A DNA stretch of 64,000 nucleotides from Abditibacterium sp. Its GTDB lineage: Bacteria; Armatimonadota; Abditibacteriia; Abditibacteriales; Abditibacteriaceae. The notes under the pieces are model-generated. The model was not told the DNA's origin, ran no database searches, and saw only the letters and a program-made list of their open reading frames with translations. Of the stretch, positions 8,868-36,149 are shown piece by piece. Made by a program: the position numbers and the translations under genes. The stretch is from NCBI GenBank assembly GCA_965246885.1, contig CBDFFV010000001.1, positions 1 to 64,000 on the forward strand, read 5' to 3'. Every line of letters starts with the position of its first letter. Within the stretch, counting starts at the first letter, position 1.

Positions 8868-11015
8868 ATGAGATTTGTCCGTCCCGTTTTTCTGCTCGCG
8901 CTTCTTCTGGCGCCGTCGCCTTTGCGCGGGGTGTGGGGGCAAAGCGCCGCGCGCACGATGCGCTCCGAAGGTTACATCCTTGGCCCCGGCGACGTGTTGC
9001 GGATCAGCGTGGCTGGCTTTCCCGAATTCTCGCAGGAAACCCTTGCTGTTCCCCCCGATGGCAGCGCTTCGCTTGCGCGCATCGGCACTATCCGCCTGAG
9101 CGGTCGCACCCGCGCGGCGGTGCAAGAGGAAGTACGCCAACGACTCATCGCCCGCGTGCGCTTGCGCGATCCGCAAGTCACCGTCACGCTGTTGACCGTC
9201 CGGTCGGGCATCATCGGCGACGCTTCACTGAGCGGCGACGTGCCGCGCAGTGGCAACTTCCCGTTGCACGAAAACGAGCGCTTGTCCTCGCTGCTGGCCG
9301 AAGCGGGGCTAAACGACCGCTTGGACGAAAAGCGCGCCACCCTGTCGCGCGCAGGCGCTTCCTATGCCCTCGACCTGCGCGGCGCCGCGATGCACCCCGG
9401 CTCCAAGGCCGACGTTTTGTTGCGCGCGGGCGATGCCATCGCCGTGCGCACCCTCGCCCCGGCAAAAATCGTCGTTCTGGGTGATGTCGCGCGACCGGGC
9501 GTCTACGAGTTGCACCGCCAGCCCCGCCCCGAAGCGTATGAACTGGGGTTGGCGCCCCGGCTGAGCGACCTTCTTATCCGAGCAGGCGATTTGGCGTTCC
9601 CCGGAAGCGGCGCAGGCACCAGTGGCGGCGGCGCAGGCACCGGTGGCGGCGGCGCAGGCACCGGTGGCGGCGGCGCAGGCACCAGTGGCGGCGGCGCAGG
9701 CACCGGTGGCGGCGGAACGACGGGAGCGGTATCCGGGAGCGCGCCCGCCTCCCCCGGCGCGCCCGTTTCCTACGCCGCTACGCTTCAAAGGGACGGCGCG
9801 CGTTTGCCGCTGGACGTCGAAGCGGCGCGGGATGACGTCTTCGGGCCAGCGAACATCTTTTTGCACGCGGGGGACACCGTTTCCGTGCGGTTGGTGCGCC
9901 CCATCACGGTTTATCTGGACGGCGCAACGGCCAAGACCGGCTCTTTTGAATTGGCGCCGGGCGCGGGCGTGTTGCAACTGCTCGTTCTGGGTGGGCCGCT
10001 TTCCCGCGCGCCGGGCGAACTCAAGGCTTCCATCCGGCGCGGCGACACGACCATGCCGTTCGACCTCTCCGCCCTCTTGCTATCGAGCGAGTCGAGCGCC
10101 AACGTCCGTTTGCAAAACGGCGACATCGTCCAACTGCGCGAACCCGAAACCGTCAGCGTCAGGGTCGCGGGCGAAGTCGCCAAAACCGGCCCGCTCAAAG
10201 TGCGCCCCGGCGCCACCATCCTCGATGCCCTCCTCGCGGCGGGCGGCGTTTCGTCCAGCACGCCCGTCCAAAGCGCCCGCCTGAGCGTCTTGCGCCAAGA
10301 GGGAGACGGCTCGCAGCGCGTCTACGAGGCCAACGCCGCCGGGATTCTGGGGTTGACCGACGTTTCCACCAACATGGTGCTCCGCGATGGCGACATCATC
10401 AACCTCGCGCGCGGCGAAGACCAAACCGTGTTCGTCGCGGGCCAAGTCGCCACTCCCGGCACCTATCCGCTTGGAACCGGCGATAGCCTCGCGCAACTCA
10501 TCGTGCGCGCCGGAGGCGCCAAAGACGACGCGGCGCTGACAAGGGTGCGCGTGTCGCGCCGTGCCACCGATAAAACGCCTGCGACCGAAGTCACCATAGA
10601 CGCTTACGACGCCGTCAAAACGGGCGCCCCGCTCCCCTTTGCCCTCAAAGCGGGCGACACCATCTCCGTTCCCCTTAACACCAATCAAGTGCTGGCGATG
10701 CAAGCGTTCGCCAAACCCGGTTACTACGCCATTCCCGAACGCGGCCAACTGACGCTCTTCGACTTTCTCGCCAAGGCTCAGGTCGCGCCCGGAGTGCGCC
10801 GTTTGTACATCTCGCAAGCGGACGCCAATGGCAAGATTGACCCAAAGACCACGCCCGTGCGCACGATCAAGCTCGACGACATCCCGCGTGGGCGCCAACA
10901 GAACTTCGCGTTGGAACCGCGCGAGGTCATCTACGCCGAGTCGCCCAAAGGCCCCAAGACAAGCCCCTTCCAAGTCTTGTCCACGCTGGGCGCGCTCAGC
11001 TTTTTGTTTCCGTAA
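8868..11015 (+). CDS. wza: Polysaccharide export protein, Wza-like, with multiple SLBB domains
   Basis: Signal peptide, YILGPGDVLRISV Poly_export motif, repeated V.G.V..PG.Y SLBB units. Confidence 0.85.
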   Translation: MRFVRPVFLLALLLAPSPLRGVWGQSAARTMRSEGYILGPGDVLRISVAGFPEFSQETLAVPPDGSASLARIGTIRLSGRTRAAVQEEVRQRLIARVRLRDPQVTVTLLTVRSGIIGDASLSGDVPRSGNFPLHENERLSSLLAEAGLNDRLDEKRATLSRAGASYALDLRGAAMHPGSKADVLLRAGDAIAVRTLAPAKIVVLGDVARPGVYELHRQPRPEAYELGLAPRLSDLLIRAGDLAFPGSGAGTSGGGAGTGGGGAGTGGGGAGTSGGGAGTGGGGTTGAVSGSAPASPGAPVSYAATLQRDGARLPLDVEAARDDVFGPANIFLHAGDTVSVRLVRPITVYLDGATAKTGSFELAPGAGVLQLLVLGGPLSRAPGELKASIRRGDTTMPFDLSALLLSSESSANVRLQNGDIVQLREPETVSVRVAGEVAKTGPLKVRPGATILDALLAAGGVSSSTPVQSARLSVLRQEGDGSQRVYEANAAGILGLTDVSTNMVLRDGDIINLARGEDQTVFVAGQVATPGTYPLGTGDSLAQLIVRAGGAKDDAALTRVRVSRRATDKTPATEVTIDAYDAVKTGAPLPFALKAGDTISVPLNTNQVLAMQAFAKPGYYAIPERGQLTLFDFLAKAQVAPGVRRLYISQADANGKIDPKTTPVRTIKLDDIPRGRQQNFALEPREVIYAESPKGPKTSPFQVLSTLGALSFLFP
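9609..9713 (+). repeat. Coding 21-bp tandem repeat x5 (GAGTSGG/GAGTGGG Gly-rich linker in Wza)
   Basis: GGCGCAGGCACC(A/G)GTGGCGGC x5. Confidence 0.9.
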
Positions 11016-13223: not shown

Positions 13224-13306
13224 GCTCACCGTGTGGCGGCTCACCGTGTGGCGGCTCACCGAGTGGCGGCTCACCGAGTGGCGGCTCACCGTGTGGCGGC
13301 TCACCG
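13224..13306. repeat. 15-bp tandem repeat GCTCACCG(T/A)GTGGCG, 5.5 copies, between convergent genes
   Basis: Units at 13224, 13239, 13254, 13269, 13284 and a partial at 13299 that contains the ABC transporter stop codon. Confidence 0.9.
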
Positions 13307-15211
13307 ATACGACTGCGCTTGCGTTTCAAACAGGTTGGCGTAAAGGCCGCCTTGGGCGAGCAGTTCCTCGTGCGTGCCGCGCGCGACCAAAACGCCTTTA
13401 TCGAGGACGCAGATCGAGTCGGCCAAGCGCACCGTCGAGAGGCGGTGCGAGATGAGTAGGGCGGCGCGGCCTTGCACCAATTCGCGGAACGACTCAAACA
13501 GTTCGGCTTCGGCGCGCGGATCGAGGGCGCTGGATGGCTCGTCCAAGATCAGCAGTTGCGACGGGCGTAAAAAGGCGCGCGCGAGGGCGATTTTCTGCCA
13601 CTGTCCGATGGAAAGCTCCTCGCCACCCGCGAAGTCGCGGCCCAACAAAGTATCCAACCCTTCGGGCAAGCGGTCGGCAATACGATTGACGCCCGCGCGA
13701 TACGCTGCTTCTTCGACTTGGCGGCGCGTGAGGGGTGACATTAGTTCGCGCCCTTCGGGAGAAACAACGTCGCTGTCTCTGGGGTGCGTGGCGGGCAAGC
13801 GCAGGTCGCCCAGCCAGATGTTCTCGGCGAGGGTGAGGGAATAGTGGTTGTAGTCTTGGAAAACCGCCGAAATGCCGCGCCGCCACTCGACGGGGTCGCA
13901 GTCGCGCGCGTCCACCCCATCGAGCGCGATGCGCCCGGCATCGGGGTCATACAAACGGCAGAGCAGCTTGACGAGGGTGGTTTTGCCCGACCCGTTCTCG
14001 CCCACAAGCGCCACCACTTCGCCCGGAGCAACCGAGAAAGAGATGTCTTTCAGGGCTTGGCGCTCGGAGTTGGGATAGCCAAAAGAGAGGTTCTCGACCG
14101 TCAAGCCGCTCTTCCAGCGCGTGGGCAACGCCTTGGGAACGGCGGGCGCGACGAGCTTGGGTTGCAAGTCGAGGAACTGATACAACAGAGACAAAAACGT
14201 GGTGTCCTCGTGAAGCGACAAGATGGAGCCGAGGGTGCCTTGCATCGAGCCTTGCGCGCGTTGCACCGCTCCGAAATACATCACCAAGGCGCCCAGCGAG
14301 AGGGTGCCCGCGAAGGTTTTCGAGGCGATATACGCGAGGAGCGCGAAGGTGGGCGCGACGACGAACAGTTGCACGCTCCCGTCGGCCAGCATGCGCCGCC
14401 GCGCCACGCGCAAACGTCCGCTTGATAGCCACGCGCGCATGGCGTCGAAGCGGGCGCTGAAAAAGGGCGCCATGTCGAACAAGCGCACTTCCTTGGCGAA
14501 GGGTTCGAGCGTCAGCAGGTAGTTGAAGTACCCCGCGCGGCGCTCGATGGGCGTGCTTTTCATCGTCCATTCCCAAAGAATGGACACAAAGCGCAAACGC
14601 ACGAACAAGCCCGGCAGCACCGACAAGAACAGCACGAACGGCACAATGGGATGGAGCGTGAACAGCAAGGCGCCGATGGCGGCGAGCGAAAAGAGGTTTT
14701 GCCCCAAGCTGGTCAGCCCGTTCACGATGCGCGTCGGGCGAAAGGGCGCTTCTTCTTGGGCGCGATGGAGGGAGTTGAAGAACTCGGCGTTCTCGAAATA
14801 CTCCAAATCCATGCGCGCCGCCTGTTTTTGCACGAGCGCGCTCATGCGCCGCGACACGACCAGCCCTTGCCCCTCGCTTACGAACGACGAAGCCGTCGAA
14901 CACAAAGAGGAAAGAAGCGCGACGCCGCCCGCGAGCGCGATGAGTTCGAGGGAAACGTGCCATGCCGCTTCGCGCGCGGCACCGGGCAGGAGCGTCGCCC
15001 CGTGCGTAACCGCGTCCACGATGCGCCCCAGCAACCACAACGAGGCGAGCGGCAAGATGGCGCCCGCCGCCACCAAAAGCAGCGACGCCGCCATCCACCC
15101 CGGCCCGCTTGACCAAACCAATTGGATGGCGCGTCCCAATAGTGCCAGAGAGCGCACGCGGCTCCAGATGCGGTGTTTCACAAAAAGAAGTAGTGTGGTC
15201 GAAGCACGCAA
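13301..15211 (-). CDS. ABC exporter (fused TMD-NBD), lasso peptide cluster D protein
   Basis: N-terminal TM domain; Walker A GENGSGKTT, signature LSIGQWQK, Walker B LILDEPSS; abuts the kinase gene; start uncertain. Confidence 0.9.
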   Translation of the reverse strand: MRASTTLLLFVKHRIWSRVRSLALLGRAIQLVWSSGPGWMAASLLLVAAGAILPLASLWLLGRIVDAVTHGATLLPGAAREAAWHVSLELIALAGGVALLSSLCSTASSFVSEGQGLVVSRRMSALVQKQAARMDLEYFENAEFFNSLHRAQEEAPFRPTRIVNGLTSLGQNLFSLAAIGALLFTLHPIVPFVLFLSVLPGLFVRLRFVSILWEWTMKSTPIERRAGYFNYLLTLEPFAKEVRLFDMAPFFSARFDAMRAWLSSGRLRVARRRMLADGSVQLFVVAPTFALLAYIASKTFAGTLSLGALVMYFGAVQRAQGSMQGTLGSILSLHEDTTFLSLLYQFLDLQPKLVAPAVPKALPTRWKSGLTVENLSFGYPNSERQALKDISFSVAPGEVVALVGENGSGKTTLVKLLCRLYDPDAGRIALDGVDARDCDPVEWRRGISAVFQDYNHYSLTLAENIWLGDLRLPATHPRDSDVVSPEGRELMSPLTRRQVEEAAYRAGVNRIADRLPEGLDTLLGRDFAGGEELSIGQWQKIALARAFLRPSQLLILDEPSSALDPRAEAELFESFRELVQGRAALLISHRLSTVRLADSICVLDKGVLVARGTHEELLAQGGLYANLFETQAQSYR

Positions 15212-16207
15212 TTAGCCCCGCGTTTCGCGCACCAGCCGCGTCACGGTTTCGATGGTTTGCGGCAACAGCGCGAGGTCGCGGCGGCGCGACAGTTCCCAGA
15301 CATGGCAGTGAGCGGCTAAGGCTGCGCACGCGCGAAAGTGCGCCACGCGCCGCGCGCCAGTCAAATACAAGTCACTCCAGCGCGCAGCGAAAGTATGGGG
15401 GAGCAACTGCCCCAGCGCTTCTCCCGGCGACAGCGCGCGGGCATCTATGTCGGGACGCGCGGGGTCATCGTGCGAAGCCAACAGGAAAACGTGTCGCAAC
15501 GGGCGGGCGGCGCTCGCAAGCGGGGCCATGAAGTACTGCTTGTCTACTAACCCCATGCCGTCCAGTTCGGGCGCCACGCGCGGGAGGGTGTCGGGCGCCG
15601 CCCCAACGACAGCGCGCACCGCGTCCGGCACCAATTTCATCGAACCAAATCCCACGCGCGCGAGCGGCGCTCCCAACGGCGCGTCGGACGCGAAGTCAAG
15701 GGCCAGCACATCGTCGCAAAACAAGGGATAACCCGCAAGCGAAAACGCGGCGCCAAGGGTGGATTTGCCTTGCCCCTTGTCGGCGGCAAAAGCGCAGGCA
15801 ACGGGTTGGCCATCGGCGTCAGTCATTTCAACGGCGCCCGCATGGAGCGCCAACCAACCGCGCGCTTCGAGCAAAAGGGCCAAAACGCTGCCAAGAAGGG
15901 GCACGCGCCACGTCGAAGCGGATGTGCCTTCAAGCGGCTCAACCAAAACGCGCGCGTCGCCCTCGATTTCAAAGCGGCCCACTTGGGCAAAAAGCAGGGA
16001 AGAAGAGTTCTCGGAAAAGCTCAAAACGTTCTCGATGGGGGCGTCGGGCGCGTTTCGTGCTTCAACTTCGGCGAGTGGTAAAGTCCTGCCCACTTCAATC
16101 GAAACGTCAGCGCCCCCACTCGCATCGAACGCGGGCAAATCGGGCAAGGCGAACTGCGATTGGAAGCGCAGGCCGTAAGCGAAGCGGCGGTCAAGCGGCG
16201 GGGTCAT
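15212..16207 (-). CDS. HPr kinase-like lasso peptide kinase (PadeK/ThcoK type)
   Basis: AYGLRFQS N-terminus, LALHAGAVE, GQGKSTL P-loop and CDDVL motifs; directly downstream of lasso precursors. Confidence 0.8.
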   Translation of the reverse strand: MTPPLDRRFAYGLRFQSQFALPDLPAFDASGGADVSIEVGRTLPLAEVEARNAPDAPIENVLSFSENSSSLLFAQVGRFEIEGDARVLVEPLEGTSASTWRVPLLGSVLALLLEARGWLALHAGAVEMTDADGQPVACAFAADKGQGKSTLGAAFSLAGYPLFCDDVLALDFASDAPLGAPLARVGFGSMKLVPDAVRAVVGAAPDTLPRVAPELDGMGLVDKQYFMAPLASAARPLRHVFLLASHDDPARPDIDARALSPGEALGQLLPHTFAARWSDLYLTGARRVAHFRACAALAAHCHVWELSRRRDLALLPQTIETVTRLVRETRG

Positions 16208-16221
16208 GGTGGGGTAGGGCA

Positions 16222-16254
16222 CAAAAACAAAAAAGGCCCGCAATGGAGCCTTTT
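16222..16254 (-). terminator. Rho-independent terminator after lasso precursor genes
   Basis: Minus strand AAAAGGCTC-CATTGC-GGGCCTTTTTTGTTTTT: GC hairpin followed by a U-tract. Confidence 0.7.
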
Positions 16255-16365
16255 GAGTTTTGTTTGCTGCGTATCAGGAAGATTGTGCGGCCAAAGCGCC
16301 CTTGTCCGGGCCGGAGTCAGCGATTCGTGGATTGCAGGTCGGTCGTTCTTTGAACGTGGTGTCTC

Positions 16366-16509
16366 TTACGAGAGGCTCGTATTAATGAGGCTCACGCTGG
16401 AGCCAGCGATCAAAGTGCGGTCGAGTTTGCTTCCGTGAGAGTTCTGCTGGGTGATTTGCGCAACGGTGCCATGAACGGTCAGTTGCGGGGTTTGGTAGGA
16501 TTTTTTCAT
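16366..16509 (-). CDS. Lasso peptide precursor A2 (47 aa): [47 protein letters not shown]
   Basis: Hand-translated and absent from the ORF track; YxxPxL leader motif, Thr at -2, Asp9, C-terminal Ser. Confidence 0.9.
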
Positions 16510-16595
16510 CTGTTGGCACTTTGAAGTGGGAAGTGGGTAGAGATGATCCGATCCTTTGCTTGTCCCCTTAGCACCTTGGGAGGCGCCGTCTCAAG

Positions 16596-16733
16596 TTACG
16601 AGAACAAGAGGTTCTTTTTGGGAGTGTTCACGGGGAAGGAACGGTCGAGGTTGTCGCCGTCTTTGTTCCCTTGGGTGATTTGCGCAACGGCGCCGTGAAC
16701 GGTCAGTTGCGGGGTCTGGTAGGATTTTTTCAT
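16596..16733 (-). CDS. Lasso peptide precursor A1 (45 aa): [45 protein letters not shown]
   Basis: Hand-translated; strong SD AGGAGGTG 7 nt upstream; YxxPxL leader, Thr at -2, Gly1, Asp9, C-terminal Ser. Confidence 0.93.
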   Translation of the reverse strand: MKKSYQTPQLTVHGAVAQITQGNKDGDNLDRSFPVNTPKKNLLFS

Positions 16734-16826
16734 GTGTTGTCACCTCCTGTTTAAGTGGAATAGGGTTTGTCCAGCTAACCTCGGCCCGGACAAAAGCACC
16801 TAAGCACGTCTCATCTTCCTCTCCAA

Positions 16827-16856
16827 AGCATAGCATACGGTTTGGACGCGGTGCAA
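16827..16856 (-). promoter_or_regulatory. Putative sigma70 promoter for lasso precursors
   Basis: TTGCAC-18 bp-TATGCT with a TGn extended -10 on the minus strand, about 95 bp upstream of A1. Confidence 0.5.
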
Positions 16857-16897
16857 GCACAATTTTTCTTTTAACAGTTAAAGTTATCTACGGGCGC

Positions 16898-18943
16898 TCA
16901 AATTCCTCTTACCTGTTCCGTTTGTGTAAACGCCATGTTTCCTGAACTCCCCTTTTCGACGCCTTGCAGCCACGCGCCAAGGGCCAGTACTCGCCACAGA
17001 GCAAATGCGACGCGCGTGACATGACCGCCGGAGGGCGGCAGAATTTTTAATTCTTCCCACAAGCGGTGCACGGCAGCGACGTCGAGCCACTCAGCCAGCG
17101 CGCCCGGTTCTTCCAGCCATGTTTCAATGCGTGCGGCTTCAACCGCGCGCAGCCCATGAATCATTTGCGGCGCGAAGTTCGTTTTCGCGGCCCGCCATTG
17201 CACTCCCGGAGGTAGTAGCCCTTGCATCGCGCGGCGCATGACCCAGCGATTCCAGCCGTCGCGCAGTTTTTGATCGGACGGCAGGCTTAGACACAGTTCC
17301 ACCATCTCCTGCTCCCAAAACGGAACGCGCACTTCAAGCGCGTGCGCGCCCGCCTGAGAATCTATCGCTTCGAGGGCAACCGCTTGCATGGCAGTCCCCA
17401 ACATTTCGGCGTGGTGGGCGCGCACGATTGGACTAGCGGGAGGAGAAGAAATGGCCGGCAGCAAAGCGCGTTTGTCGGCGCGCACCAGTTCTCGCACCAA
17501 TGCGGCGCTTTCTTCGTCTTCCGACGCGGAACCGGAGCGCGCGCGAGGAAAAGGCATGGCCTCGATGCCGCGTGAAAACAGGCGCAGAAAACGTCCGAGG
17601 AAGCGGGTGCCGCGCGCGCGTTGCATGAGCGGCCCCCACCACAACGGCCAGATGGATTGATTGGTGATGCCAGCGCGCCGCAGGGCGCGCAGTTCGTGGC
17701 GCGCCGCCCCGAAACGACGCTGAAAGGCCAATTCCGCCACCCGCTCGTAACCCAAAAAGACCACTTCGTCGCCGCCGTGCCCATCCAACACGACCTTCAC
17801 GCCCGCTTCTTGAAGCGGTGGGTATTGCACCCACGTCGAGCAGGTGTTGGGGCCAAGGGGGGGGCCATCGAGGTGCCACACGACGCGCTCGATGTCGTGC
17901 AAGGCGCCAATGTCGTCGCCCCAAACCCACTCGCGCCGGAGCTTGTCGCCCGCCAAGGCGAGGTTTTGCTCGATCCAAGGGCGCTCGTCGCATTCGGCGA
18001 AGCGGGCAAAGACCGTCGAAAGCGCCAAAAGAGGCACTTTGTCGGGCGGGGCTTGGCGGATCGCCACCGCCGCCACGGACGACGAGTCCAACCCGCCCGA
18101 CAAAAACGTGGCCAGTTCGCCCGCGCTCCGGCTGCGCTCGGCGACGCTGCGCTCAAAGGCCGCTTTCACCCTTTGGGCGTAATCATCATCATGCGGAAGT
18201 TCCAATTCGCGGCTCGCGTCGAGGCTGAAATACTGCCCTTGGCGCGGTGAGGCGGACGGGTGGGCATCGAGTGCAAGCGAAAGGGTGCGCGCGGGTGCCA
18301 AGCGCTCGACGCCCTCATAAAAAGTGCGTGTGAAAGAAGTAATTTCCCCCGCGAGATATGCGCCGATTTGAACCTCGTCGGGGCAGGGCGGGAAGGGCAG
18401 GGCGGGCCACAGCGCCTTGATTTCGTTGGCGAAAGCGAACACGACGCCCGGCACGAAAGCGAAGTAAAAAGGTCGCACGCCGAAGCGGTCGCGCGCGCAG
18501 AAAAGGGTCTGATTCTTTTCGTCCCACACGGCGAAAGCGAAGTCACCCTTTAAATGGAAGGGCGCTTCTTCGCGCCACAAGGAATACGCTTCGAGCGCCA
18601 AGCGTCCGTCGCTCCACGCCCGCGCTTTCGTTGTATCAAGTCCAAGCTCGAACGCCAACGCTTCCCGTCCGTCCAAGCGCACGTCACCGACCAACCGCAA
18701 CCACTCGCCGCCATCGGCGCTTGGAAGAGAAAGGGCGGCGGCGCCCCCAGCGCATTCCCACTGCGCTTGCGGGGTGGCGTTGAGCGGAGCGGAACCTAAC
18801 GCGACGGCGCCGCGTGCGTCCGTCCAGCGCGCGTTCCATCCGGCAACGTCTACCCGATGGCGCAGACGCTCCAGCATAGTGGCGGCGACCGCGTCAGAAG
18901 CCTCGCTGCCGTCCAAGCGGACGTATCCGACAAAAGCGCTCAT
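16898..18943 (-). CDS. Lasso peptide cyclase (C protein, asparagine synthetase-like)
   Basis: No N-terminal Cys (MSAFVG); ARDRFGVRP, LSGGLDSS, LDGHGGDE and RVPFW motifs; ATGA-coupled to B2. Confidence 0.9.
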   Translation of the reverse strand: MSAFVGYVRLDGSEASDAVAATMLERLRHRVDVAGWNARWTDARGAVALGSAPLNATPQAQWECAGGAAALSLPSADGGEWLRLVGDVRLDGREALAFELGLDTTKARAWSDGRLALEAYSLWREEAPFHLKGDFAFAVWDEKNQTLFCARDRFGVRPFYFAFVPGVVFAFANEIKALWPALPFPPCPDEVQIGAYLAGEITSFTRTFYEGVERLAPARTLSLALDAHPSASPRQGQYFSLDASRELELPHDDDYAQRVKAAFERSVAERSRSAGELATFLSGGLDSSSVAAVAIRQAPPDKVPLLALSTVFARFAECDERPWIEQNLALAGDKLRREWVWGDDIGALHDIERVVWHLDGPPLGPNTCSTWVQYPPLQEAGVKVVLDGHGGDEVVFLGYERVAELAFQRRFGAARHELRALRRAGITNQSIWPLWWGPLMQRARGTRFLGRFLRLFSRGIEAMPFPRARSGSASEDEESAALVRELVRADKRALLPAISSPPASPIVRAHHAEMLGTAMQAVALEAIDSQAGAHALEVRVPFWEQEMVELCLSLPSDQKLRDGWNRWVMRRAMQGLLPPGVQWRAAKTNFAPQMIHGLRAVEAARIETWLEEPGALAEWLDVAAVHRLWEELKILPPSGGHVTRVAFALWRVLALGAWLQGVEKGSSGNMAFTQTEQVRGI

Positions 18944-19416
18944 GACGTTGCGCCACCGGGAGAGGGCGGCGCAAGAGTAGCCGATGCCCCTTTGGGCGCG
19001 ACCGTCAAGAGCGGTTTCCACCTCTCAATCGGCCCCCCGATGATGACCCGACCCTTCCACTCGATCCATGCGTGCGCTTCAAACGGTTTGCGTTTGTTCG
19101 CGGTGGCGTCCACTCCCAGCACCAGCGCACACACCTCGCCCTCGCGGGCCAATACTGTTTGCAGCGTGAGAGCTTGGGTGAGACACGAGGCGCGGGGAAC
19201 AAAACGTGCCGCCCGCCTGACCGCATGGGCGCGCCGCCACACTTCAAAGGGCACCAATTCCGCCACCTGACTGGCCCGCGCCGCGTCGAGCAGGCGCGAC
19301 GCGTCCTCTTCCCACTGTTTGGAGCAGGAGGTGATGGGGCTGCGCCACAGCGCCCACCGCACGCGGGCGACGAGCGGCAAGTAGCGAAACGTCAAAGCCA
19401 AATCTTGCGAGGCCAT
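18940..19416 (-). CDS. Lasso peptide leader peptidase B2 (transglutaminase-like)
   Basis: ASCLTQAL catalytic Cys and FEAHAWIE His motif; start MASQDL at 19416. Confidence 0.9.
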   Translation of the reverse strand: MASQDLALTFRYLPLVARVRWALWRSPITSCSKQWEEDASRLLDAARASQVAELVPFEVWRRAHAVRRAARFVPRASCLTQALTLQTVLAREGEVCALVLGVDATANKRKPFEAHAWIEWKGRVIIGGPIERWKPLLTVAPKGASATLAPPSPGGATS

Positions 19417-19457: not shown

Positions 19458-19745
19458 TTATTCGCACACTTCGATGAGTCCGCGTTCGAGCAGTTGACCC
19501 AGCAAGGCCAACACGTCGTTTTGGCACTGCGTGGCTTCGACGTCGTATTCGTCCAGTAGCTGCGAGGTGATCTCTTGGATTTCGCGCGGGCTTTGGATGA
19601 GTTCCCAGATGCGCGCTCCGACGGGATCGAGGCCGTAGTAGATGCCGTTTTGCAAATCTAAGATAGCCGCTTCGCCTGCGAGGTCGCACGAGACCTGCTC
19701 GCTGGCGGCTTTAACTTGGGTTGTGGGCAGGAGAGTGTGTGTCAT
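19458..19745 (-). CDS. Lasso peptide RRE protein B1 (PqqD family)
   Basis: QVSCDLAGEAAILDLQNGIYYGLDPVGARIWELI..EYDV is a classic lasso PqqD/RRE sequence. Confidence 0.92.
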   Translation of the reverse strand: MTHTLLPTTQVKAASEQVSCDLAGEAAILDLQNGIYYGLDPVGARIWELIQSPREIQEITSQLLDEYDVEATQCQNDVLALLGQLLERGLIEVCE

Positions 19746-19769: not shown

Positions 19770-21272
19770 TTATTCGGCGTCAGTGTCGCGCGCGGCGCTT
19801 CCATTGAGGTATTGACCGTTGCGCGCCACGATTTGAAGCGCGGGCAGGGGAGCCGGTTCACCAGTGGCGGGGGCCGCATCGTGAATTTGGGTGAGACCTC
19901 CTCCGCCGTCGAGAGGCACACTGGGCTTCGATTGTTCGGAGCGTTCGCTGATGGCGGGCAAGTCGGGTGTGACCAACCGGGTGGGTGCTTCGACCGACAC
20001 GATGTCGGAGGGCGCACTCGGCTCGCGTTCGCCGATGACAGTTTTACCGTCCGGGGCCAAAATGTGACGGCGGCGGTCGAACCACGCGAAGCGTCCGGCT
20101 TTGACGACGGCGCGGCGGCGGTCGCCCTCGCGCGGGTGGCCTGCTGGATTGCGGCGGCGATCGCCGGTTTCGTCGCGGCGGTCGCCGGGGCTGGTGGTAG
20201 CAATGACGTGCTGGATTTTGGCGCGGAAACTGGGGGTATCGAAGCGCATGGCGTTTTCGCGGATGACTTCGGGGTTCCATTCATGGGCGTAAGCGCGCTC
20301 GACCGCTTCGCATAGCGCTTCAGTGGTTTGCGGGCGGAACAGGATGCCGCTTTTGCCCTCGACTTGCACGTCCAAGGCGCCGCCTGCGGCAAACGCCACG
20401 ACCGGCACGCCCGCCGCGTTCGCTTCGACGGGCGCGATGCCAAAGTCTTCCTCACCGGGCATCAGATACATCTTCGCGCGGGCAATAAGGCCGGGCAGGT
20501 CGGCGTCGGACACGTAACCCAGAAACTCAATCGTCGGCCCGGCAATGGCTTTGAGAGCGTCCAACTGGCGCCCGGTGCCAATCACTTTCAGGGGTTGGCC
20601 TAATTTTGTGAACGCGCGCACCGCCAAATCTACGCGCTTATATGGCACCAAGCGCGAAGCGACGATGCCGTAGTCCCCGACCTCACTGCGCGGGGCGAGT
20701 TGGAATCGTTCGGTGTCCACCGGCGGGTGCACGACTTCGGCTTCGCGGCGGTAGAACTTGCGGATGCGGCGCGCGACGGCGCTGGAGTTGGCGATATACC
20801 TGTCCACGCGCATAGCGGCGATGGCATCCCACGTGCGCAAATAGTGCAGCCCCGGCGCAAGCATCGAGCGAATAGGGGAGGAGATGCGTTCTTTCTCGAC
20901 GTAAGAGGTCGTCGCCCAAGCGTAGCGCATCGGCGAGTGCGTGTAGCAAATGTGGGTGGTGTGCGGCTGGGTAATGACACCCTTGGAAAACGCCGACGAG
21001 CTTGACAGTACGAGGTCGTAACTGCTCAAATCGAACGATTCAAAAGCGGTCGGGTAAAGCAAAAGCGCCGCACGGTGCGTCATCCGCTTGGCGGGCAAAC
21101 GCTGCAAAAACGAGGTGCGAATATCCCAAGAGCGATACGTAGACGGCATCGCGTCGGGGTCATACGCCGACGTGAAGACGGGCGCTTCCGGGAAAAGGTC
21201 GTGGAACACCTCGACCACCTTTTCGGCGCCCCCCATTTGCATCAAAAAATCGTGGACAATTGCAACTCGCAT
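19770..21272 (-). CDS. GT4 glycosyltransferase (WbaZ-like mannosyltransferase) with Arg-rich C-terminal extension
   Basis: MRVAIVHDFLMQMGGAEKV, YTHSPMRYAW and EEDFGIAPVEA motifs; about 140 aa extra tail; 24 bp upstream of B1. Confidence 0.88.
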   Translation of the reverse strand: MRVAIVHDFLMQMGGAEKVVEVFHDLFPEAPVFTSAYDPDAMPSTYRSWDIRTSFLQRLPAKRMTHRAALLLYPTAFESFDLSSYDLVLSSSSAFSKGVITQPHTTHICYTHSPMRYAWATTSYVEKERISSPIRSMLAPGLHYLRTWDAIAAMRVDRYIANSSAVARRIRKFYRREAEVVHPPVDTERFQLAPRSEVGDYGIVASRLVPYKRVDLAVRAFTKLGQPLKVIGTGRQLDALKAIAGPTIEFLGYVSDADLPGLIARAKMYLMPGEEDFGIAPVEANAAGVPVVAFAAGGALDVQVEGKSGILFRPQTTEALCEAVERAYAHEWNPEVIRENAMRFDTPSFRAKIQHVIATTSPGDRRDETGDRRRNPAGHPREGDRRRAVVKAGRFAWFDRRRHILAPDGKTVIGEREPSAPSDIVSVEAPTRLVTPDLPAISERSEQSKPSVPLDGGGGLTQIHDAAPATGEPAPLPALQIVARNGQYLNGSAARDTDAE

Positions 21273-21786: not shown

Positions 21787-23076
21787 TTAAGCGGTAAGCT
21801 TGGCGGCGAGTCGGTCGGGGAAGCGCTCTTTGACTTCGCGGCGGCGCCCGCGCGTTATCTCCCCGCGCGCTCCTGCCGTGCCGGGGTTGTCACGCAAGAA
21901 GGGCGCGAGTCCCTCCCGCACGCGCTCCTCGATGGCTGTTTGCTCGTCGGGCGCAAGCTCGGCGAAGACGGCATCCAGCGCCTGATTCTGCTCCTCCTCG
22001 TCCTCGAAATCTAAGGGTAAAAGCGCGCGCGGCCCGAAATCGGGCAACAAGATTTGTCGAAGCGAACCGGGAGGGGGCGTTAATGGGCCGTTGACGGCCA
22101 TTCCCGGCGCTTGTGGCGCTTCCGGGCCATGATGTGCCAAAACGGGAGAAAGCGGGCTTCCAAAGCGAAATGTGGCGAGCGGCTCGCCATCTTTGGCCGC
22201 CTCGATTTCCATGCTTTCGAGATACCCGCGCGAGATGAGTTCCTCGACGGCGGGCGCCAGTTTTTCGCGGATTTTCGAGGGGTATTTGTAGGGCGACATT
22301 CCCAATCGGTCGCGCAACTTCCACAAACCGAGGGTGATGATCTTGCGCGGCGGCTTGTCCGCGTGACGCAGTAACTCCAGCAGGCGAAACAAGCGCCGCG
22401 AGGTCGGCGAGTCGAGCGAGATGGCGAAATCGAGCGCGAGCGAGCGCACGTTGCCCGCGTGAAAAGAGGTGTGGAGTACCTCGTCCCAATGAAACCACGA
22501 GAGCGGCAGATGCCCCTGCCCCTTGCGTCCGCGCGCTTCGGCGGAGATGGCGTAAGAACTGATAATACCAAAAGCAATGGAATCGTAGGGCGCTTTGCGG
22601 CGCGCGTCCCAAAAGGCGTGTTGCGCCGCGATGTGAACCGCGCTCAAGCGGTTGAACGCCAGCTCCAACTTTTTGTACCCGAGGTCGTTCGGGTTCCAGT
22701 CGAGCCGGGAAAGTAACTCGTAGCGGGAGAAAGTGACTTTTTGCGGCCACTCGCTTCCGGCGGCGGCTTCGCGGGTGAGTTGCAGCAAGACGAGATACAG
22801 CAACTCTTCGTTCGGCCCGGGCAACCCGTACGCCGTCGGAGTTGTGACATGCCACCGAGCGTTGACAAGCCTTCCGTCCGGCAAAGTACGCGGCGTTTCG
22901 GAAAGCAGTTCGTTTTCGCTTTGACGACCGGGTGGTTGTAAGAGCGCGAAGGGATGTCCGGCTAAATTCATCTCGTCGCGCCCGGAGTGATCGTCACCGA
23001 GCAAAACGAGCTGCGCCGAAGGCAACGGCGCAGCCGTTTTTGCCTCCGTTTGCGAAGCAAAATTGCTTTTTTTCAT
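21787..23076 (-). CDS. repA: Plasmid replication initiator protein (RepA/RPA family)
   Basis: GRDEMNLAGHPFALL N-terminal motif of RPA-type initiators, winged-helix-like core, adjacent iteron array; start 23076 (alternative 23121). Confidence 0.8.
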   Translation of the reverse strand: MKKSNFASQTEAKTAAPLPSAQLVLLGDDHSGRDEMNLAGHPFALLQPPGRQSENELLSETPRTLPDGRLVNARWHVTTPTAYGLPGPNEELLYLVLLQLTREAAAGSEWPQKVTFSRYELLSRLDWNPNDLGYKKLELAFNRLSAVHIAAQHAFWDARRKAPYDSIAFGIISSYAISAEARGRKGQGHLPLSWFHWDEVLHTSFHAGNVRSLALDFAISLDSPTSRRLFRLLELLRHADKPPRKIITLGLWKLRDRLGMSPYKYPSKIREKLAPAVEELISRGYLESMEIEAAKDGEPLATFRFGSPLSPVLAHHGPEAPQAPGMAVNGPLTPPPGSLRQILLPDFGPRALLPLDFEDEEEQNQALDAVFAELAPDEQTAIEERVREGLAPFLRDNPGTAGARGEITRGRRREVKERFPDRLAAKLTA

Positions 23077-23156
23077 AAATTTTTTTCCAATAAGGATTTT
23101 CTTTCTACTTTCTATGTGCAAAGTATGGCTTTATAAAGCCCACGCAAGGCGATCAT

Positions 23157-23485
23157 TTCCCCAACAAGGCGTGTTTCCTTCCCCAACAAGGCGTGTTTAA
23201 CCGTCCCCAATTTCCCCAACAAGGCGTGTTTCTTTTCCCCAACAAGGCGTGTTTCTTTTCGACCTCTTCCCCAACAAGGCGTGTTTCCCGATTTTAAACA
23301 CGCCTTGTTGGGGAAATCCGCGCAAATCCACGCTCAAATGCCTATGGATAACTTGGGGATAACTTTTTAAACACGCCTTGTTGGGGAAGGATTTATCGAC
23401 TCCTGAAACCTCTTCCCCAACAAGGCGTGTTTAAAATCGCGTGACTGCGCCCGAAATGCCTAAAGAAACACGCCTTGTTGGGGAA
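23157..23485. repeat. Iteron array / replication origin: nine exact copies of TTCCCCAACAAGGCGTGTTT
   Basis: Forward copies at 23157, 23179, 23212, 23235, 23267, 23413; reverse copies at 23296, 23369, 23466; immediately upstream of repA. Confidence 0.9.
23343..23362 (-). promoter_or_regulatory. Two DnaA-box-like sites within the origin
   Basis: TATGGATAA (23343) and TGGGGATAA (23354), each one mismatch from TGTGGATAA. Confidence 0.55.
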
Positions 23486-23689
23486 ATCCACGCTCAAAGG
23501 ATAACTTCGGACAGTTCCAAACCCAGTTCGGTGAGGAAGTCACTGGCGCGAGCCGATTTTCCCCTTTCATCGGGATTTGTAACAGATTGTATGGAGTATT
23601 AAGAAAAAGAAAACGCGACGAAAAGAGCCTGCCATCGCCGCCAAACGCCCGCTTATAGCCGCCGAAAAGCGGGTTATGAAAGGGATAAA

Positions 23690-29787: not shown

Positions 29788-32094
29788 TTACGGGGCCAAG
29801 GCGTGCGCGCTCACCAATTCGTGCGACGGCACGAGCAGGGTGCCGACCCTTTTTCCGCCTTGGAAGACCCCGGCGCGAACGGGAGCGTCGGTGGGGTTAA
29901 AGGCGATGAAGGTCTTCTGGCCCGTCGCGGCGTTGACATACGCCCGCGAAAGGGGCAGGCTGAAGGAGTAGTCCCACGCGATGGCGCCCAGAGAGAGGTT
30001 GGCGTGCGCGAAGTAATACGTCAGGCCGGGAGTGTCGTTGTCGTGCGCGGTGGCGCTGTTCTTGGCCCACAACTCGTCCATCTGCTGCGCGGCAAAAGCG
30101 GGGTTGACCTGCGCGGCTTGCCCCAACAGGACGTTACCCAGCGCGGGGCCGACCTTGTCGAAATCTATCTCGCCGTCCTTGGACGCCTTGCGCGCGGCCC
30201 ACATCGCGCTGAAGCTCTTTTTGGCAAAAGCGGGGTCTTCCACTAAATACGCCAGCCCCGGCGACATGGGGCACCACTGGATGCCCCATATCCAAGCGGG
30301 GTCACCCGAAAAGTAGGTGCCATAGTTGTTGCCGCCGCTCCACACCATGCCCACCACCTCGTGCTTCCAGTTGGGCGGCCAGTTGTCGCCGTGCTCGTTG
30401 AACCAGTACTCTTGCACGGCGCGGCTTTCGAGGGCGTAGCCCATCGCGCCCGCCGCCGTCATTTCCTTGTCGCCCAAGGCTTCGCCCAGCAGGAACAGGC
30501 CCTCCCAGCTTTGCACGGCTTCGGACGAGGACTCCTGATTGTTGCCCGTGCCACCCGAAAAGCCGCCCGCCCACGAGTGCCCTTCCCACACGTCGAAGGT
30601 GCGCAGAAAGGGAAAGTCGGCGTCATTCCTGTCCCAGTTGGCGTACTCTTTGGCGACCAAGCGCGCCATCGGGCCGTAGTCCCGCAGCCATGCGGGGTCG
30701 GAGAAGCCCAACAGCGCGCTGGCGAGGGTGAAGTAGCCGTAGTGGAAGTGCTGGTCGTTGAACCCTTCCGAGCCGTAGCTGGTGTTAAAGCCGATCAAGC
30801 CGCCCCATTTGGGATAGCGCGCGAACAAGTGCGCTTTTTCGCCGGGGGTAAAGGTGAACCAGTCGGTGAGGGCGGTTTTGAGCGAGTCGTGCAGCTTCGC
30901 TTCGCTGGGGTCGCGGAGGGCGTGCGCAATGTCCATATATTGCGCCCACTGCGTCAGGTGCTTGGCGCCCCAGTAGGTATCGTCGCCGTATTGCGTGCGG
31001 GTCGCGTAGCGGGCGAGGTAGTCGCGCATGCGCGCCGCGTCGAAGCTCTTATCGGTTGGGGCGGGCAAAGAAGGCGGGAAGCCCTTGAAGGGATAGGTGA
31101 TGGAAAAGTCCGTCCCGACCGCGCACTTCATCGTCCCGCGCGGCGTCAGATACTCTGGGCCTGTCAGCGCGAGGTCGTTCTCCGTGCCGCGCCAGTGATG
31201 CGAAAGCCAGCCTTGAATCAGGCGCTTTTCCGTGCCTTGCAGGGGTTGCGTTTCCAGATGCCAGTGCGTCACCACGCGGGCGCGCGCGCTCTGATACTCC
31301 CACGACAAGCGGCTGTCGCGCGGAACCGCAAACGCGAAGCGGTGAAACAAGGCGAAGTCGCTCGTCTTGGCGAGGGGGCAGACCGTCAAAAACCCCTTGC
31401 CGCCCGTAAAGGTGGCGGATACCTTGTCCCCGTCGCGCGTCCACCGGGTGTTCGCGGGAGCGAACACCCCATACGAGCGCCCGCCATAGGTCAGTCCGAA
31501 GCCGTCTCCCGTCGCGGGCAAGTCGGCTTTGTCGCCGCCCGCGCCGAAAAAGGTGGCGTCTTTATCTATTTGCAGCGTGGGAGAGATGCCCTTGGCTTCT
31601 ATCCACACATACGGCAAGCCGCGCCCAAGCGTGACGTCGAAGTATTTGTTCGCGCTTTCGCCCAGACGGAAGGAAACCAGCCAATCGCTCCACGATTTGG
31701 CGCGGGTGTCAACGGGCTTGAAGCCGTCCCCGCCGACTTTGAGCGGGTTTTCGGAAACGGGGTCGCTGCCCGACTCGTTCCAGCGCGTGGGAAAGGTGAT
31801 CTCCAAGCCGTCCGGCGTCGCTTTGGTTTGTTGCGGAAACGACCATAGCTGCCCCACGTAGCGGTCAACGAGCAGGTTCGTCCACCACTTGTTGGTCGGG
31901 ATCGGCTTGCCCGCCGCTTCGGGTAACAGTTGTAACGGTTTATCCAGCGTGGCGCGCGCTTGTGCCGCGACTTCGGGCGGCGGAAAAGACGCATACGAGC
32001 CTTTGTCTACGCTCACGACTGCGGGGGTGCCTTGGGCATGGGCGGCGGCGGACAGCAAAAGGGTTCCGAGGAGGGAGAATGTGAGGAGCTTCAT
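29788..32094 (-). CDS. Secreted GH81 endo-beta-1,3-glucanase
   Basis: Signal peptide; PIPTNKWW, FNDQHFHYGYF, GHSWAGG and NQESSSEA catalytic motifs. Confidence 0.9.
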   Translation of the reverse strand: MKLLTFSLLGTLLLSAAAHAQGTPAVVSVDKGSYASFPPPEVAAQARATLDKPLQLLPEAAGKPIPTNKWWTNLLVDRYVGQLWSFPQQTKATPDGLEITFPTRWNESGSDPVSENPLKVGGDGFKPVDTRAKSWSDWLVSFRLGESANKYFDVTLGRGLPYVWIEAKGISPTLQIDKDATFFGAGGDKADLPATGDGFGLTYGGRSYGVFAPANTRWTRDGDKVSATFTGGKGFLTVCPLAKTSDFALFHRFAFAVPRDSRLSWEYQSARARVVTHWHLETQPLQGTEKRLIQGWLSHHWRGTENDLALTGPEYLTPRGTMKCAVGTDFSITYPFKGFPPSLPAPTDKSFDAARMRDYLARYATRTQYGDDTYWGAKHLTQWAQYMDIAHALRDPSEAKLHDSLKTALTDWFTFTPGEKAHLFARYPKWGGLIGFNTSYGSEGFNDQHFHYGYFTLASALLGFSDPAWLRDYGPMARLVAKEYANWDRNDADFPFLRTFDVWEGHSWAGGFSGGTGNNQESSSEAVQSWEGLFLLGEALGDKEMTAAGAMGYALESRAVQEYWFNEHGDNWPPNWKHEVVGMVWSGGNNYGTYFSGDPAWIWGIQWCPMSPGLAYLVEDPAFAKKSFSAMWAARKASKDGEIDFDKVGPALGNVLLGQAAQVNPAFAAQQMDELWAKNSATAHDNDTPGLTYYFAHANLSLGAIAWDYSFSLPLSRAYVNAATGQKTFIAFNPTDAPVRAGVFQGGKRVGTLLVPSHELVSAHALAP

Positions 32095-32116
32095 GGGCAG
32101 GGTGCTTCTTTGAATC

Positions 32117-32222
32117 AAGCGACTAAAGTCGCAGCCCGCAGGGTCGTCGGCCTTCGCCGACGGGGTGCCAGTTCACCTTCGGCAAAGGCCGACGACCCTG
32201 CGGGCTGCGACTTTAGTCGCTT
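32117..32222. repeat. Long inverted repeat (REP/REPIN-like), 38-bp perfect arms
   Basis: AAGCGACTAAAGTCGCAGCCCGCAGGGTCGTCGGCCTT at 32117-32154 with its reverse complement at 32185-32222; each arm has an internal GCGACTAAAGTCGC palindrome. Confidence 0.85.
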
Positions 32223-32229
32223 ACTTATC

Positions 32230-33222
32230 TCAAACCGTATCCCCGTCCAAGACGGTGACGGGCAAGCGAATTTCTTCGACTTCGGGCGGGGTTTGGCCGG
32301 ATGCGCGGTTTTCGATAAGGGCGACCAATTTGGCGAGAGCGGCGGTCGCCACATCTTCCCAAGGCGACTTCGCCGTGACCAAGCGGCGCGCGGGCAGTTG
32401 GTCGCGGTCGAACCCATCGAACCCGGTGACGGCTATCTCTTCCGGCACGCGCACGCTCGCCGCCAAGCACGCGCGCAAGAGGTTGTAGGCGGCGCGGTCG
32501 TTCCAACACAAGACCGCGACGGGCGATAGGTCGCGCAGCTGCGGGAGGGCGGGCGCGGCCTCCTCGAAGTCAATGGGAATGACACGCCGCTCCGACGGTG
32601 AGACGCCGCGCCGCGCCAGTTCCGTCTCGAAAGCGGCGCGGCGCCGCTCGATGGACAAGAGCTTCACGCGCGGCGTCAAAAACGCGAAACGGCGGTGGCC
32701 GCGCGCCCACAAGAGTTCGACCAGTTGCGCGATTCCGCCCTCGTCGTCGCACGTTACGGCGGGGAAATAGGGAAGCGCATCGGCGACCGACACCACCGGC
32801 AAGGAGGAGCGCCCCAGTATCTCGACGAGCGGGTCGTCGGCTCCGGCGTGCAATATCAGCCCGTCAATGCGCCCATCGCGCAGCTTGCCAAACATCGTCT
32901 CGGCGGAGGAGCCATACGAGTTGTGCAGCATCAAGTCCAGCCCATACGCGCCGCACGCGCACTGCAAGGCGCCCACAACCGTGCCCAGAAAAGCGTTGCG
33001 CACATCGTAGTTGTGGTTGGTATGCACTCCGATGATGCCCGTGCGCCCGTGCCGAAGCGAGCGGGCAACGGCGTTGGGTTGATACCCCAAGCGTTGCGCC
33101 GTTTCCAACACGCGCTGGCGCGTCGCGGCGGACGCGCGGTGCCGCGCATCGCCGTTCAAGATGCGAGACACCGTTGGCTGCGACAAGTTCAACTCTCGCG
33201 CGATGTCTTTGGCAGTGAGCAT
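32230..33222 (-). CDS. LacI family transcriptional regulator
   Basis: TAKDIARELNLSQPTVSRILNG HTH, YQPNAVARSL hinge and VPEEIAVTGFD; probable start Met 33222, with TATAAT about 50 bp upstream. Confidence 0.92.
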   Translation of the reverse strand: MLTAKDIARELNLSQPTVSRILNGDARHRASAATRQRVLETAQRLGYQPNAVARSLRHGRTGIIGVHTNHNYDVRNAFLGTVVGALQCACGAYGLDLMLHNSYGSSAETMFGKLRDGRIDGLILHAGADDPLVEILGRSSLPVVSVADALPYFPAVTCDDEGGIAQLVELLWARGHRRFAFLTPRVKLLSIERRRAAFETELARRGVSPSERRVIPIDFEEAAPALPQLRDLSPVAVLCWNDRAAYNLLRACLAASVRVPEEIAVTGFDGFDRDQLPARRLVTAKSPWEDVATAALAKLVALIENRASGQTPPEVEEIRLPVTVLDGDTV

Positions 33223-33304
33223 CCCAAGGCACCCCGATCCGCAGGCGCGTTCCTTCGTTGTGGTTCCAATCATTATACCTTCCTTCCCGCGCCCGCTCGG
33301 TGCG

Positions 33305-33501
33305 CCGTCCGCCCTTGCGGGCCAACCGTCCGCCCTTGCGGGCCAACCGTCCGCCCTTGCGGGCCAACCGTCCGCCCTTGCGGGCCAACCGTCCGCCCTT
33401 GCGGGCCAACCGTCCGCCCTTGCGGGCCAACCGTCCGCCCTTGCGGGCCAACCGTCCGCCCTTGCGGGCCAACCGTCCGCCCTTGCGAGCCAACCGTCCG
33501 C
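33305..33501. repeat. 21-bp tandem repeat CCGTCCGCCCTTGCGGGCCAA x9 plus partial (VNTR)
   Basis: Eight identical units plus one with a single mismatch; intergenic upstream of lacI. Confidence 0.95.
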
Positions 33502-33617
33502 GCGCGTCATTCTTCCATCGGCGCGCCTCTTTCTGCGGAAGAATTGCGTGATTCCGTCGTCGTCCCACCTAATTCTTCCATCGGCGCGCCCCTTTCAACG
33601 GCTCCCGCGCGCGCGTC

Positions 33618-36032: not shown

Positions 36033-36072
36033 AGTGTGTGGAATGAGTTGGAGAATCAGGAGGTCAAGGAGT

Positions 36073-36091
36073 TGCGTATCCGTATGTGCAA
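36073..36091. promoter_or_regulatory. Putative LacI operator, copy 1 (TGCGTATCCGTATGTGCAA)
   Basis: Identical 19-mer at 37007; quasi-palindrome with central CG; upstream of the GH gene. Confidence 0.7.
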
Positions 36092-36100
36092 AAGCGGAAA

Positions 36101-36134
36101 GAAGAAGGCAAAGCCGGGTGGCCTTGCCTTCTTC
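36101..36134 (-). terminator. Hairpin terminator after the DUF1559 gene
   Basis: GAAGAAGGCAAGGCC-ACCC-GGCTTTGCCTTCTTC followed by TTT on the minus strand. Confidence 0.65.
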
Positions 36135-36149
36135 ATCGTTGCTTCGGCT

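Follow-up and report, generated by a model that had tools for sequence, protein, structure and literature searches.

Two small open reading frames (ORFs) on the minus strand, A1 (positions 16733–16596) and A2 (positions 16509–16366), probably represent the lasso peptide precursors of a kinase-bearing cluster within a polysaccharide locus; a short mRNA of their own is predicted, whose ends likely pair as a conserved helix of 30–40 bp, and the match between their leaders likely stems from leader recombination between genes with older, unlike cores. Positions refer to the window, i.e., the whole analysed stretch of 64,000 nucleotides, with which contig C2 (72,363 bp) of a 3.56-Mb genome begins. 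The precursors alone are ordinary, as multi-precursor and kinase-bearing lasso clusters are already known; what is likely added to this familiar kind of cluster is a lineage-specific, covarying RNA clasp and a mosaic history of leaders and cores.

A1 encodes 45 amino-acid residues, consisting of a 21-residue leader (16733–16671) and a 24-residue core of the widespread FP..TP...L.FS type with a predicted Gly1–Asp9 ring. A2 encodes 47 residues, consisting of a 21-residue leader (16509–16447) and a 26-residue core of another type with a predicted Gln1–Asp9 ring. The initial annotation had given the same ORFs, leaders and cores, with a single residue separating the leaders and with N2, G5, L8-D9-R10 and the last Ser common to both cores, and these observations are confirmed: 4 of 63 nt differ over the 21 leader codons (three synonymous differences and one Ala/Thr exchange), and the cores are 27% identical. 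It had also termed both ORFs unannotated, which holds for A2, whose exact protein is absent from the protein collection searched, but not for A1, whose exact protein is recorded there (NCBI, ENA); the large published precursor tables may already list these peptides (Tietz 2017; Kretsch 2023). The calculated masses of the cyclised products are 2657.36 Da for A1 and 2666.40 Da for A2, with an addition of 79.97 for the phosphorylated form. A GTG-started ORF of 22 codons (16574–16506) has a stop codon that overlaps the A2 start, a stop that arises from any ATG-A.

Both ORFs score above the curated cut-off (33 bits) of NCBIfam NF033528 (lasso_cyano), with 40.8 bits for A1 and 41.8 bits for A2, and above that of NF033521. 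They are flanked by lasso cyclase and kinase genes, and these scores together with this position argue that the ORFs are not chance occurrences. Pfam gave no match for A1 or A2, and a PDB sequence search with A1 gave none at E up to 10. The acceptor of the lasso ring is Asp or Glu at core position 7–9 (PMC12480086, accessible text), and both cores carry Asp9. In addition, both leaders have the YxxP-x-L motif and Thr at position −2 that characterise class II lasso precursors, and genes for an RRE, a leader peptidase and a cyclase with catalytic motifs lie nearby, the cyclase having NF033535 as its best match, under the cut-off. Judged from sequence, A1 and A2 are real lasso precursors and members of lasso_cyano.

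Conservation among relatives bears on the residues proposed to be modified. The related set contains 23 precursors, taken from seven genomes and 4 of 26 metagenome loci; the other 22 metagenome loci were left out, 20 of them having no precursor under the regular expression used and two being unrelated. Gly5, Asp9 and the C-terminal Ser are present in 23/23 of these precursors, and their first core residues comprise 15 Ala, four Gln, three Gly and one Glu. Asp9 as putative ring acceptor and the last Ser as putative kinase target are thereby supported, and the proposed cleavage after Thr-Gln is supported by the motifs and by the intact B1, B2, C and K genes. Records with closely related precursors (L102, L123, L252) are labelled Abditibacteriota or Abditibacterium, which makes a host from that group likely.

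The minus-strand gene order is GT4-B1-B2-C-A1-A2-K-D. B1 (19458–19745) encodes a RiPP recognition element of the PqqD fold (PF05402, 1.8e-21; NF033536, 79.6 bits with the cut-off at 80), and B2 (18940–19416) encodes a leader peptidase (NF033537, 68.6 bits against a cut-off of 33; PF13471) with SCLTQAL as its Cys motif and AHAWIE as its His motif. C (16898–18943) encodes a lasso macrolactam cyclase of the asparagine-synthase fold, whose best match is NF033535 (E 4e-136; 455 bits, below the cut-off of 525), and which carries the ATP-binding motifs SGGLDSS and DGHGGDE. K (15212–16207) encodes an HPr-kinase-like lasso kinase, with a weak match to TIGR04352 (3e-6); its His122, Lys148, Asp165 and Asp166 correspond to the His-Lys-Asp-Asp kinase set named in the accessible part of PMC9266682, and are invariant in four orthologs. 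D (13301–15211) encodes an MsbA-like ABC exporter with 80–85% identity in four congeners. The GT4 glycosyltransferase gene (19770–21272; PF00534/PF13692) is directly upstream of B1 and co-oriented with it, and occupies the same position at 64–83% identity in six relatives (G003, G012, G010, G002, G004 and G014); it may be part of the polysaccharide locus or serve in tailoring the peptide.

The operon order is conserved in the same six genomes, G014 being without a B2 match. Orthologs of cyclase C are 61–65% identical, and close orthologs occur in 5/12 congeners and one family member; an initial cyclase search for related loci returned distant matches only (24–35% identity).

The cluster most resembles those of pseudomycoidin (psm, Bacillus pseudomycoides) and paeninodin (pade), which in the accessible texts share the split B1/B2, the cyclase, an HPrK-like kinase with His-Lys-Asp-Asp, the ABC exporter, the C-terminal Ser, the residue 1–Asp9 ring (predicted here) and, on the same replicon, an NTP_transf_5 gene (PMC6993621; PMC9266682). 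The combination of a His-Lys-Asp-Asp kinase with a precursor ending in Ser, typical of the paeninodin/pseudomycoidin type, is found here. The differences lie in the gene order (B1-B2-C-A-A-K-D here), in the two precursors with different cores, in the conserved closing helix and in the host, which is likely Abditibacteriota here and Bacillota for pseudomycoidin and paeninodin. The PsmN-like gene is located about 20 kb away here, whereas it is located between B2 and D in the pseudomycoidin cluster. The WxxP leader motif is nearly invariant in paeninodins according to the available part of PMC13381572, whereas A1 and A2 have YxxP; the cluster is thus taken to work like that of pseudomycoidin but is not filed as paeninodin-type. 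The linear phosphopeptide class LPP, for which the same part of that source gives no cyclase requirement and, as leader peptidase, a signal peptidase of archaeal type, is disfavoured by the presence of the cyclase, B2 and Asp9 (PMC13381572). Caulosegnins I–III, xanthomonins, caulonodins and astexins 2 and 3 also combine several precursor genes with one enzyme set, but their clusters, as far as the accessible text covers them, mostly have an isopeptidase and no ABC exporter, which is present here (PMC7549694). The GT2 enzyme described in the accessible text of PMC11912497 is unrelated to GT4.

A1 and A2 differ in their predicted translation. A1 has a strong Shine-Dalgarno site (16740–16748) with a pairing energy of −16.0 kcal/mol with the 16S tail of the same genome, and −14 kcal/mol or stronger is reached by just 0.2% of 1007 crude genome starts. 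A2 is without such a site (−1.7 kcal/mol), whereas 16 other precursor genes at their true starts (the third gene of G014 left out) retain −11.7 to −17.9 kcal/mol. By this crude test, sites at or below −8 are barely enriched in the genome, at 8.1% of the 1007 starts vs 7.1% of 1116 internal ATGs. Strong sites are likewise missing from B1, B2 and K. As strong sites are scarce genome-wide, A2 is probably translated more weakly rather than silent.

An unlikely alternative, yet one with appreciable weight, is that only A1 yields a lasso peptide and A2 is silent or a dead end, through loss of its ribosome site, through cyclisation of Gln to pyroglutamate after cleavage, or through unthreading of its small-residue tail. 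An N-terminal Gln can indeed cyclise to pyroglutamate, A2 has no aromatic residue after Asp9, and the missing ribosome site just described points the same way. In two relatives, the second precursor gene follows an intact strong ribosome site and has ATT (L076 of G012; near 8382, minus strand) or ATA (L077 of G010; near 8413, minus strand) as its start codon. Pseudomycoidin, also with a residue 1–Asp9 ring, was isolated as a branched cycle according to the accessible text (PMC6993621). On the other side, besides the genome-wide rarity of strong sites, the A2 subtype with Gln1 is conserved in P0001 and P0002, Gln1 occurs in 8/98 outside precursors as well as in the four related ones, and the divergence of A2 fits the outlying position of this genome. 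Relaxed selection on A2 was considered and is unsupported, this genome being an outlier for the cyclase too.

The initial annotation explained the two genes by duplication followed by core diversification, a claim that is poorly supported for this lineage, each core being nearer to cores of other genomes than to its neighbour. The A1 core is 50% identical to a core of another genus and the A2 core is 50–56% identical to the second cores of congeners, compared with 27% between the two. Most related cores fall into three types that are combined differently from locus to locus. The 24-residue type of A1 is found across phyla: it accounts for 30/98 outside precursors, mostly from Mesorhizobium and other Alphaproteobacteria, and is also present in G014, L215 and L219. 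The Gln1 subtype of A2 recurs in P0001 and P0002 with the same length, Gln1 and most of the core motif (...LDRTLIAG). In core trees, A1 and A2 fall into different groups (support 92/95 and 85/90, not starred).

Leaders behave differently from cores. In L228, two leaders identical at 59/60 nt stand before two core types, and the second of these cores is 24/27 identical to the A2 core of G003, whereas the leaders of that pair match at only 49/60 nt. On the leader data, trees with genes grouped by core type are rejected (p-AU 0.023 and 0.005), the core groups having been defined after the sequences had been seen; a count of diagnostic sites (five in leaders, two in cores) is too thin to use. The same leader protein sequence also occurs with other cores in P0001–P0005, so the identity of the A1 and A2 leaders at the protein level partly reflects plain conservation, and the case for homogenisation at the DNA level consists of the three synonymous differences between A1 and A2 vs six to eight in cross-genome pairs. 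These data suggest a tendency for leaders to go with the locus and for cores to go with the type, pointing to leader recombination, which is significant in relatives and borderline for the window pair (p 0.05–0.28). Crossover or conversion likely combined old cores with a leader that had been homogenised locally.

A recent tandem duplication in this lineage, after which the cores diverged fast while the leader stayed fixed, is considered improbable. The A1 and A2 leaders are identical at 56/60 nt and are mutually nearest neighbours, a direct repeat of 102 nt begins about 10 nt ahead of the ATG and reaches into core codon 10, and recent tandem copies do exist in relatives (G014, G004, L222); the cores of these clearly recent duplications are, however, 68–100% identical. 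When sisterhood of A1 and A2 was forced on the cores, it was not clearly rejected (p-AU 0.28 for 45 nt, 0.20 for whole-core DNA and 0.0497 for protein), so that firm exclusion is not given by the AU tests. Against this, the duplication history requires that two core types already present elsewhere, namely the 24-residue type and the Gln1 ...LDRTLIAG type, arose again by convergence, and leader recombination is preferred.

The precursor genes are enclosed by a predicted RNA helix, which the initial annotation had not noted. A putative internal promoter (16827–16856, minus strand) has the −35 sequence TTGCAC, an 18-nt spacer and the extended −10 sequence TG-n-TATGCT, with a predicted transcript start near 16820. 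A promoter-like arrangement was matched by a regular expression in 7/9 units and is visible in alignments, and a scan with the strict sigma-70 consensus found no promoters, the putative one included. Between A2 and the kinase gene, a hairpin followed by a U run resembles an intrinsic terminator (16224–16254, minus strand) and has a regular-expression match in 8/10 units. The 5′ arm of the helix (16774–16820, minus strand) contributes 32 bp at 16808–16774 and an outer 8 bp at 16820–16813, with pair probabilities of 0.99 and 0.98, and the outer 8-bp helix begins at the predicted transcript start. The 3′ arm (16276–16321, minus strand) is located downstream of A2 here, and between both precursor genes in two-gene relatives. 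The complementary arms are also recognised as inverted repeat I1 (16774–16793 vs 16302–16321), and the fold of the predicted transcript has a z score of −7.2 relative to 20 shuffles.

Pairing of the flanks exceeds all 20 shuffles in 11/11 related loci (z 4.4–19), among them G004 and G014 with their drifted arm sequences. In an alignment of nine units, 95.6% of 225 cells are paired, compared with 33–44% in slid controls. Double changes occur in 8 of 25 helix pairs, a level reached by 16/500 shuffles, and the covariation score is above 500/500 shuffles, in both cases with a shuffle that ignores kinship; four of the eight double-change pairs stem from one related group (L215, L219, L222), in which L215 and L219 are near-identical. 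The mRNA strand outscores the opposite strand in 11/13 stems, is equal in one and lower in one, and in the window stem the scores are 53 vs 34. On the mRNA strand, 7/32 helix pairs are G-U, and one U-G pair is invariant in 9/9 units. The strand preference and the G-U pairs point to RNA. As an RNA prediction, the helix is lineage-specific and covarying, and favours the mRNA strand.

The distribution of the helix is limited. In two-gene relatives it encloses the first gene only, and the window is the only locus with a helix spanning both genes. The helix of G010 is weak (z 4.4; p < 0.5 in the full fold), and no stem was found at the first precursor of G004 or at the third of G014. The two tandem precursor genes of G004 (L079:10129–10758) have a 5′ arm each and one common 3′ arm, so that the two helices would be mutually exclusive. 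In a genome-wide scan, the window stem ranks 18th of 162 spaced inverted repeats; its score is therefore unremarkable in the genome, and the argument is carried by conservation. Rfam covariance models gave no match at E up to 5 in 16100–17000. A closing helix as a general lasso feature was rejected: among lasso_cyano precursors outside this group, z exceeds 5 in 2/95 ORFs, one of which is a duplicated local hairpin. This test comprised 97 precursor ORFs from 85/123 pattern loci, in a scan of 22/64 parts of the collection; three of these ORFs score at least 40, namely L102 (Abditibacteriota), L143 (the duplicated local hairpin) and L103 (weak, GC-rich). No closing helix was seen in six other YxxP loci (the second locus of G014, G022, G266, G248, L209 and L212).

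Long helices formed by sequences on either side of a functional stretch are familiar from end-paired toxin mRNAs. They are also known from the RNase III processing stalks of rRNA (PMC6582327, accessible text), whereas the enclosed stretch here is a peptide-coding mRNA. In the open main texts searched, no description of a helix enclosing a lasso precursor gene was found, and such a helix is absent from the accessible parts of PMC8498205, PMC12214591, PMC11912497, bioRxiv 10.1101/2025.09.11.675593 and PMC12697547. A hairpin was removed in the astexin-1 cluster to raise the yield, and the work on multi-precursor clusters, as described in the accessible text, concerns a local hairpin and intergenic replacement, whereas the helix described here encloses the precursor genes (PMC7549694).

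The host has an RNase III gene (TIGR02191, over the cut-off). A helix of 23–46 bp is predicted in 9/10 folded units, which exceeds the minimum of two turns required of a processing stalk for RNase III. RNase III processing and shielding of the 5′ end, taken together, are somewhat favoured as the job of the helix; the remainder falls to repression, which is discussed next, and to a DNA-level or neutral role.

A repressive helix would keep the full-length RNA translationally off until it is processed, and this is regarded as unlikely. Type I toxin mRNAs are kept inert through such end-to-end folding. In the predicted fold here, an anti-SD-like stretch of the A1 core pairs with the ribosome site of the same gene (p 0.98), and distant anti-SD-like stretches reduce expression in B. 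subtilis according to the accessible part of PMC12697547. Yet the conserved helix stops 20–30 nt upstream of the ribosome site and leaves it uncovered, and for that site just one consensus pairing was obtained, a helix of 4 bp, one column set without double changes that is broken at one pair in 2/9 units. It is very unlikely that the inverted repeat acts as DNA, as the ends of a small mobile cassette or as protein-binding sites. In favour of such a role, the repeat has a core of 13 bp that is perfect as a DNA inverted repeat, its arms border precisely those genes that shuffle, and the genome contains many spaced inverted repeats. Against it, the 13-nt arm is present once in the genome, the helix begins at the predicted transcript start, and the G-U pairs and the higher sense-strand scores noted above favour RNA.

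With processing or shielding as the favoured function, the following pathway may be proposed. Transcription from the promoter at 16856–16827 would yield an RNA of about 600 nt ending at the terminator at 16254–16224. Its ends would close into the helix, most likely serving as an RNase III processing stalk and/or a 5′-end shield, and the helix would keep precursor mRNA far above enzyme mRNA. A1 would be strongly translated from its near-perfect ribosome site, and A2 more weakly. By analogy with paeninodin and pseudomycoidin, as described in the accessible parts of PMC9266682 and PMC6993621, B1 would bind the YxxP leader, K would phosphorylate the precursor at its C-terminal Ser, B2 would cleave after Thr(−2)-Gln(−1), and C would close residue 1 onto Asp9. 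The PsmN-like enzyme encoded about 20 kb away may attach a hexose to the phosphate, and D would export the product. A hexose-phosphate may lock the threaded form (PMC6993621, accessible text), which would suit the small-residue tail of A2. In the most speculative step, the products would act with the capsule or biofilm matrix and not as antibiotics; a capsule or biofilm role is a guess based on the location of the locus.

A broader proposal, which is tentative and more probably wrong than right, is that Abditibacteriaceae package lasso precursor genes in an rRNA-style processing stalk, comprising a promoter, a covarying helix of 25–45 bp and a near-perfect ribosome site of a kind that the genome otherwise hardly uses. 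This would produce a very stable mini-mRNA and, in bulk, phospho-glyco-lasso peptides as a capsule or matrix component, and the stalk and leader would form a fixed frame into which ancient cores, including those with Gln1–Asp9 rings, are swapped by recombination.

If the helix functions as proposed, it would offer such pathways an uncomplicated means of securing the high ratio of precursor to enzyme that they need, and could serve as a compact, transferable element for increasing lasso yields. The natural combinations of leaders and cores suggest that lasso diversity can arise from leader-anchored recombination of old cores; a 2026 mini-review states, with respect to maturation enzymes, that RiPPs are not extensively reliant on mix-and-match (PMC13500794, accessible text). 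A Gln1–Asp9 ring, if formed, would add to the residues known at position 1, which include Trp1 and Tyr1 (bioRxiv 10.1101/2020.11.25.399105) and Asn1, reported as new in 2025 (PMC12670498), both according to the accessible texts; no case of a Gln1 lasso ring was found in the literature searched.

The lasso operon is neighboured by Wza-, Wzc-, flippase- and sugar-nucleotide genes. Paeninodin-like clusters have been reported in capsular polysaccharide loci, and the role of kinase-type lasso peptides there is stated to be unknown in the accessible part of PMC13381572; here such a locus is located on one small replicon. A gene for an RPA-family replication initiator (21787–23121, minus strand) adjoins nine 20-bp iteron-like repeats in both orientations (23155–23493), and part of the 7.4-Mb contig of G012 shows collinearity with C2 that continues across the two ends of C2. 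From these features, C2 is likely a circular 72-kb plasmid whose locus is chromosomal in a congener. An NTP_transf_5 (PF14907) gene, the PsmN-like gene referred to above, is located at 69013–69798 of C2 on the same (minus) strand, about 20 kb from the lasso genes across the contig join. A PF14907 gene is on the lasso contig in 6/7 lasso-bearing genomes, at a distance of 4–33 kb in five relatives; within the genus it is over the cut-off in six lasso-bearing genomes and in 0/7 others, a comparison confounded by the common polysaccharide locus, with which the gene may merely travel. A PF14907 gene is also present at L246:4665–6248.

Glycoside hydrolase (GH81, GH2-like), LacI, DUF1559 and AraC genes at 29788–38938 separate the two halves of the polysaccharide locus. 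At 9606–9670, within a polysaccharide export gene, 63 nt of a tandem repeat coding for Gly, Ala and Thr are skipped in a contig from sequencing run X2, which is either a repeat-length variant or an assembly collapse. A loose end from the same run, joining A2 to a chromosomal YxxP ORF at a common GATC, was dismissed as a library chimera, being out of frame and out of register; on a 19-kb stretch, 86/113 contigs of the run match only partly, which supports this interpretation.

GATC is scarce in the genome as a whole (3773 sites in 3.48 Mb). L081 (G014:C6, about 1683100–1683750) and L084 (G022) contain ORFs with a lasso leader whose long cores are rich in Gly, His and Cys and lack an acid at positions 7–9; none of the genes of this cluster was matched within the 17-kb regions covered. 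Small ORFs with a lasso-like YRAP.LT.HG...LT leader are present on the chromosome of the host (contig C1, at 154913, 1485249 and 2931316, all on the minus strand) and at L241:283–471, one being listed with 62 residues. The chromosomal ORFs have a Gly-rich core without an acid at 7–9 and NCBIfam matches under the cut-off; their surroundings showed no lasso enzymes, and a search of 26 family genomes with the DNA pattern did not find such ORFs. Each of them directly follows a gene for a large secreted repeat protein that ends in the same motif, and they possibly represent another peptide class or in-trans substrates of the plasmid-encoded B1 and B2.
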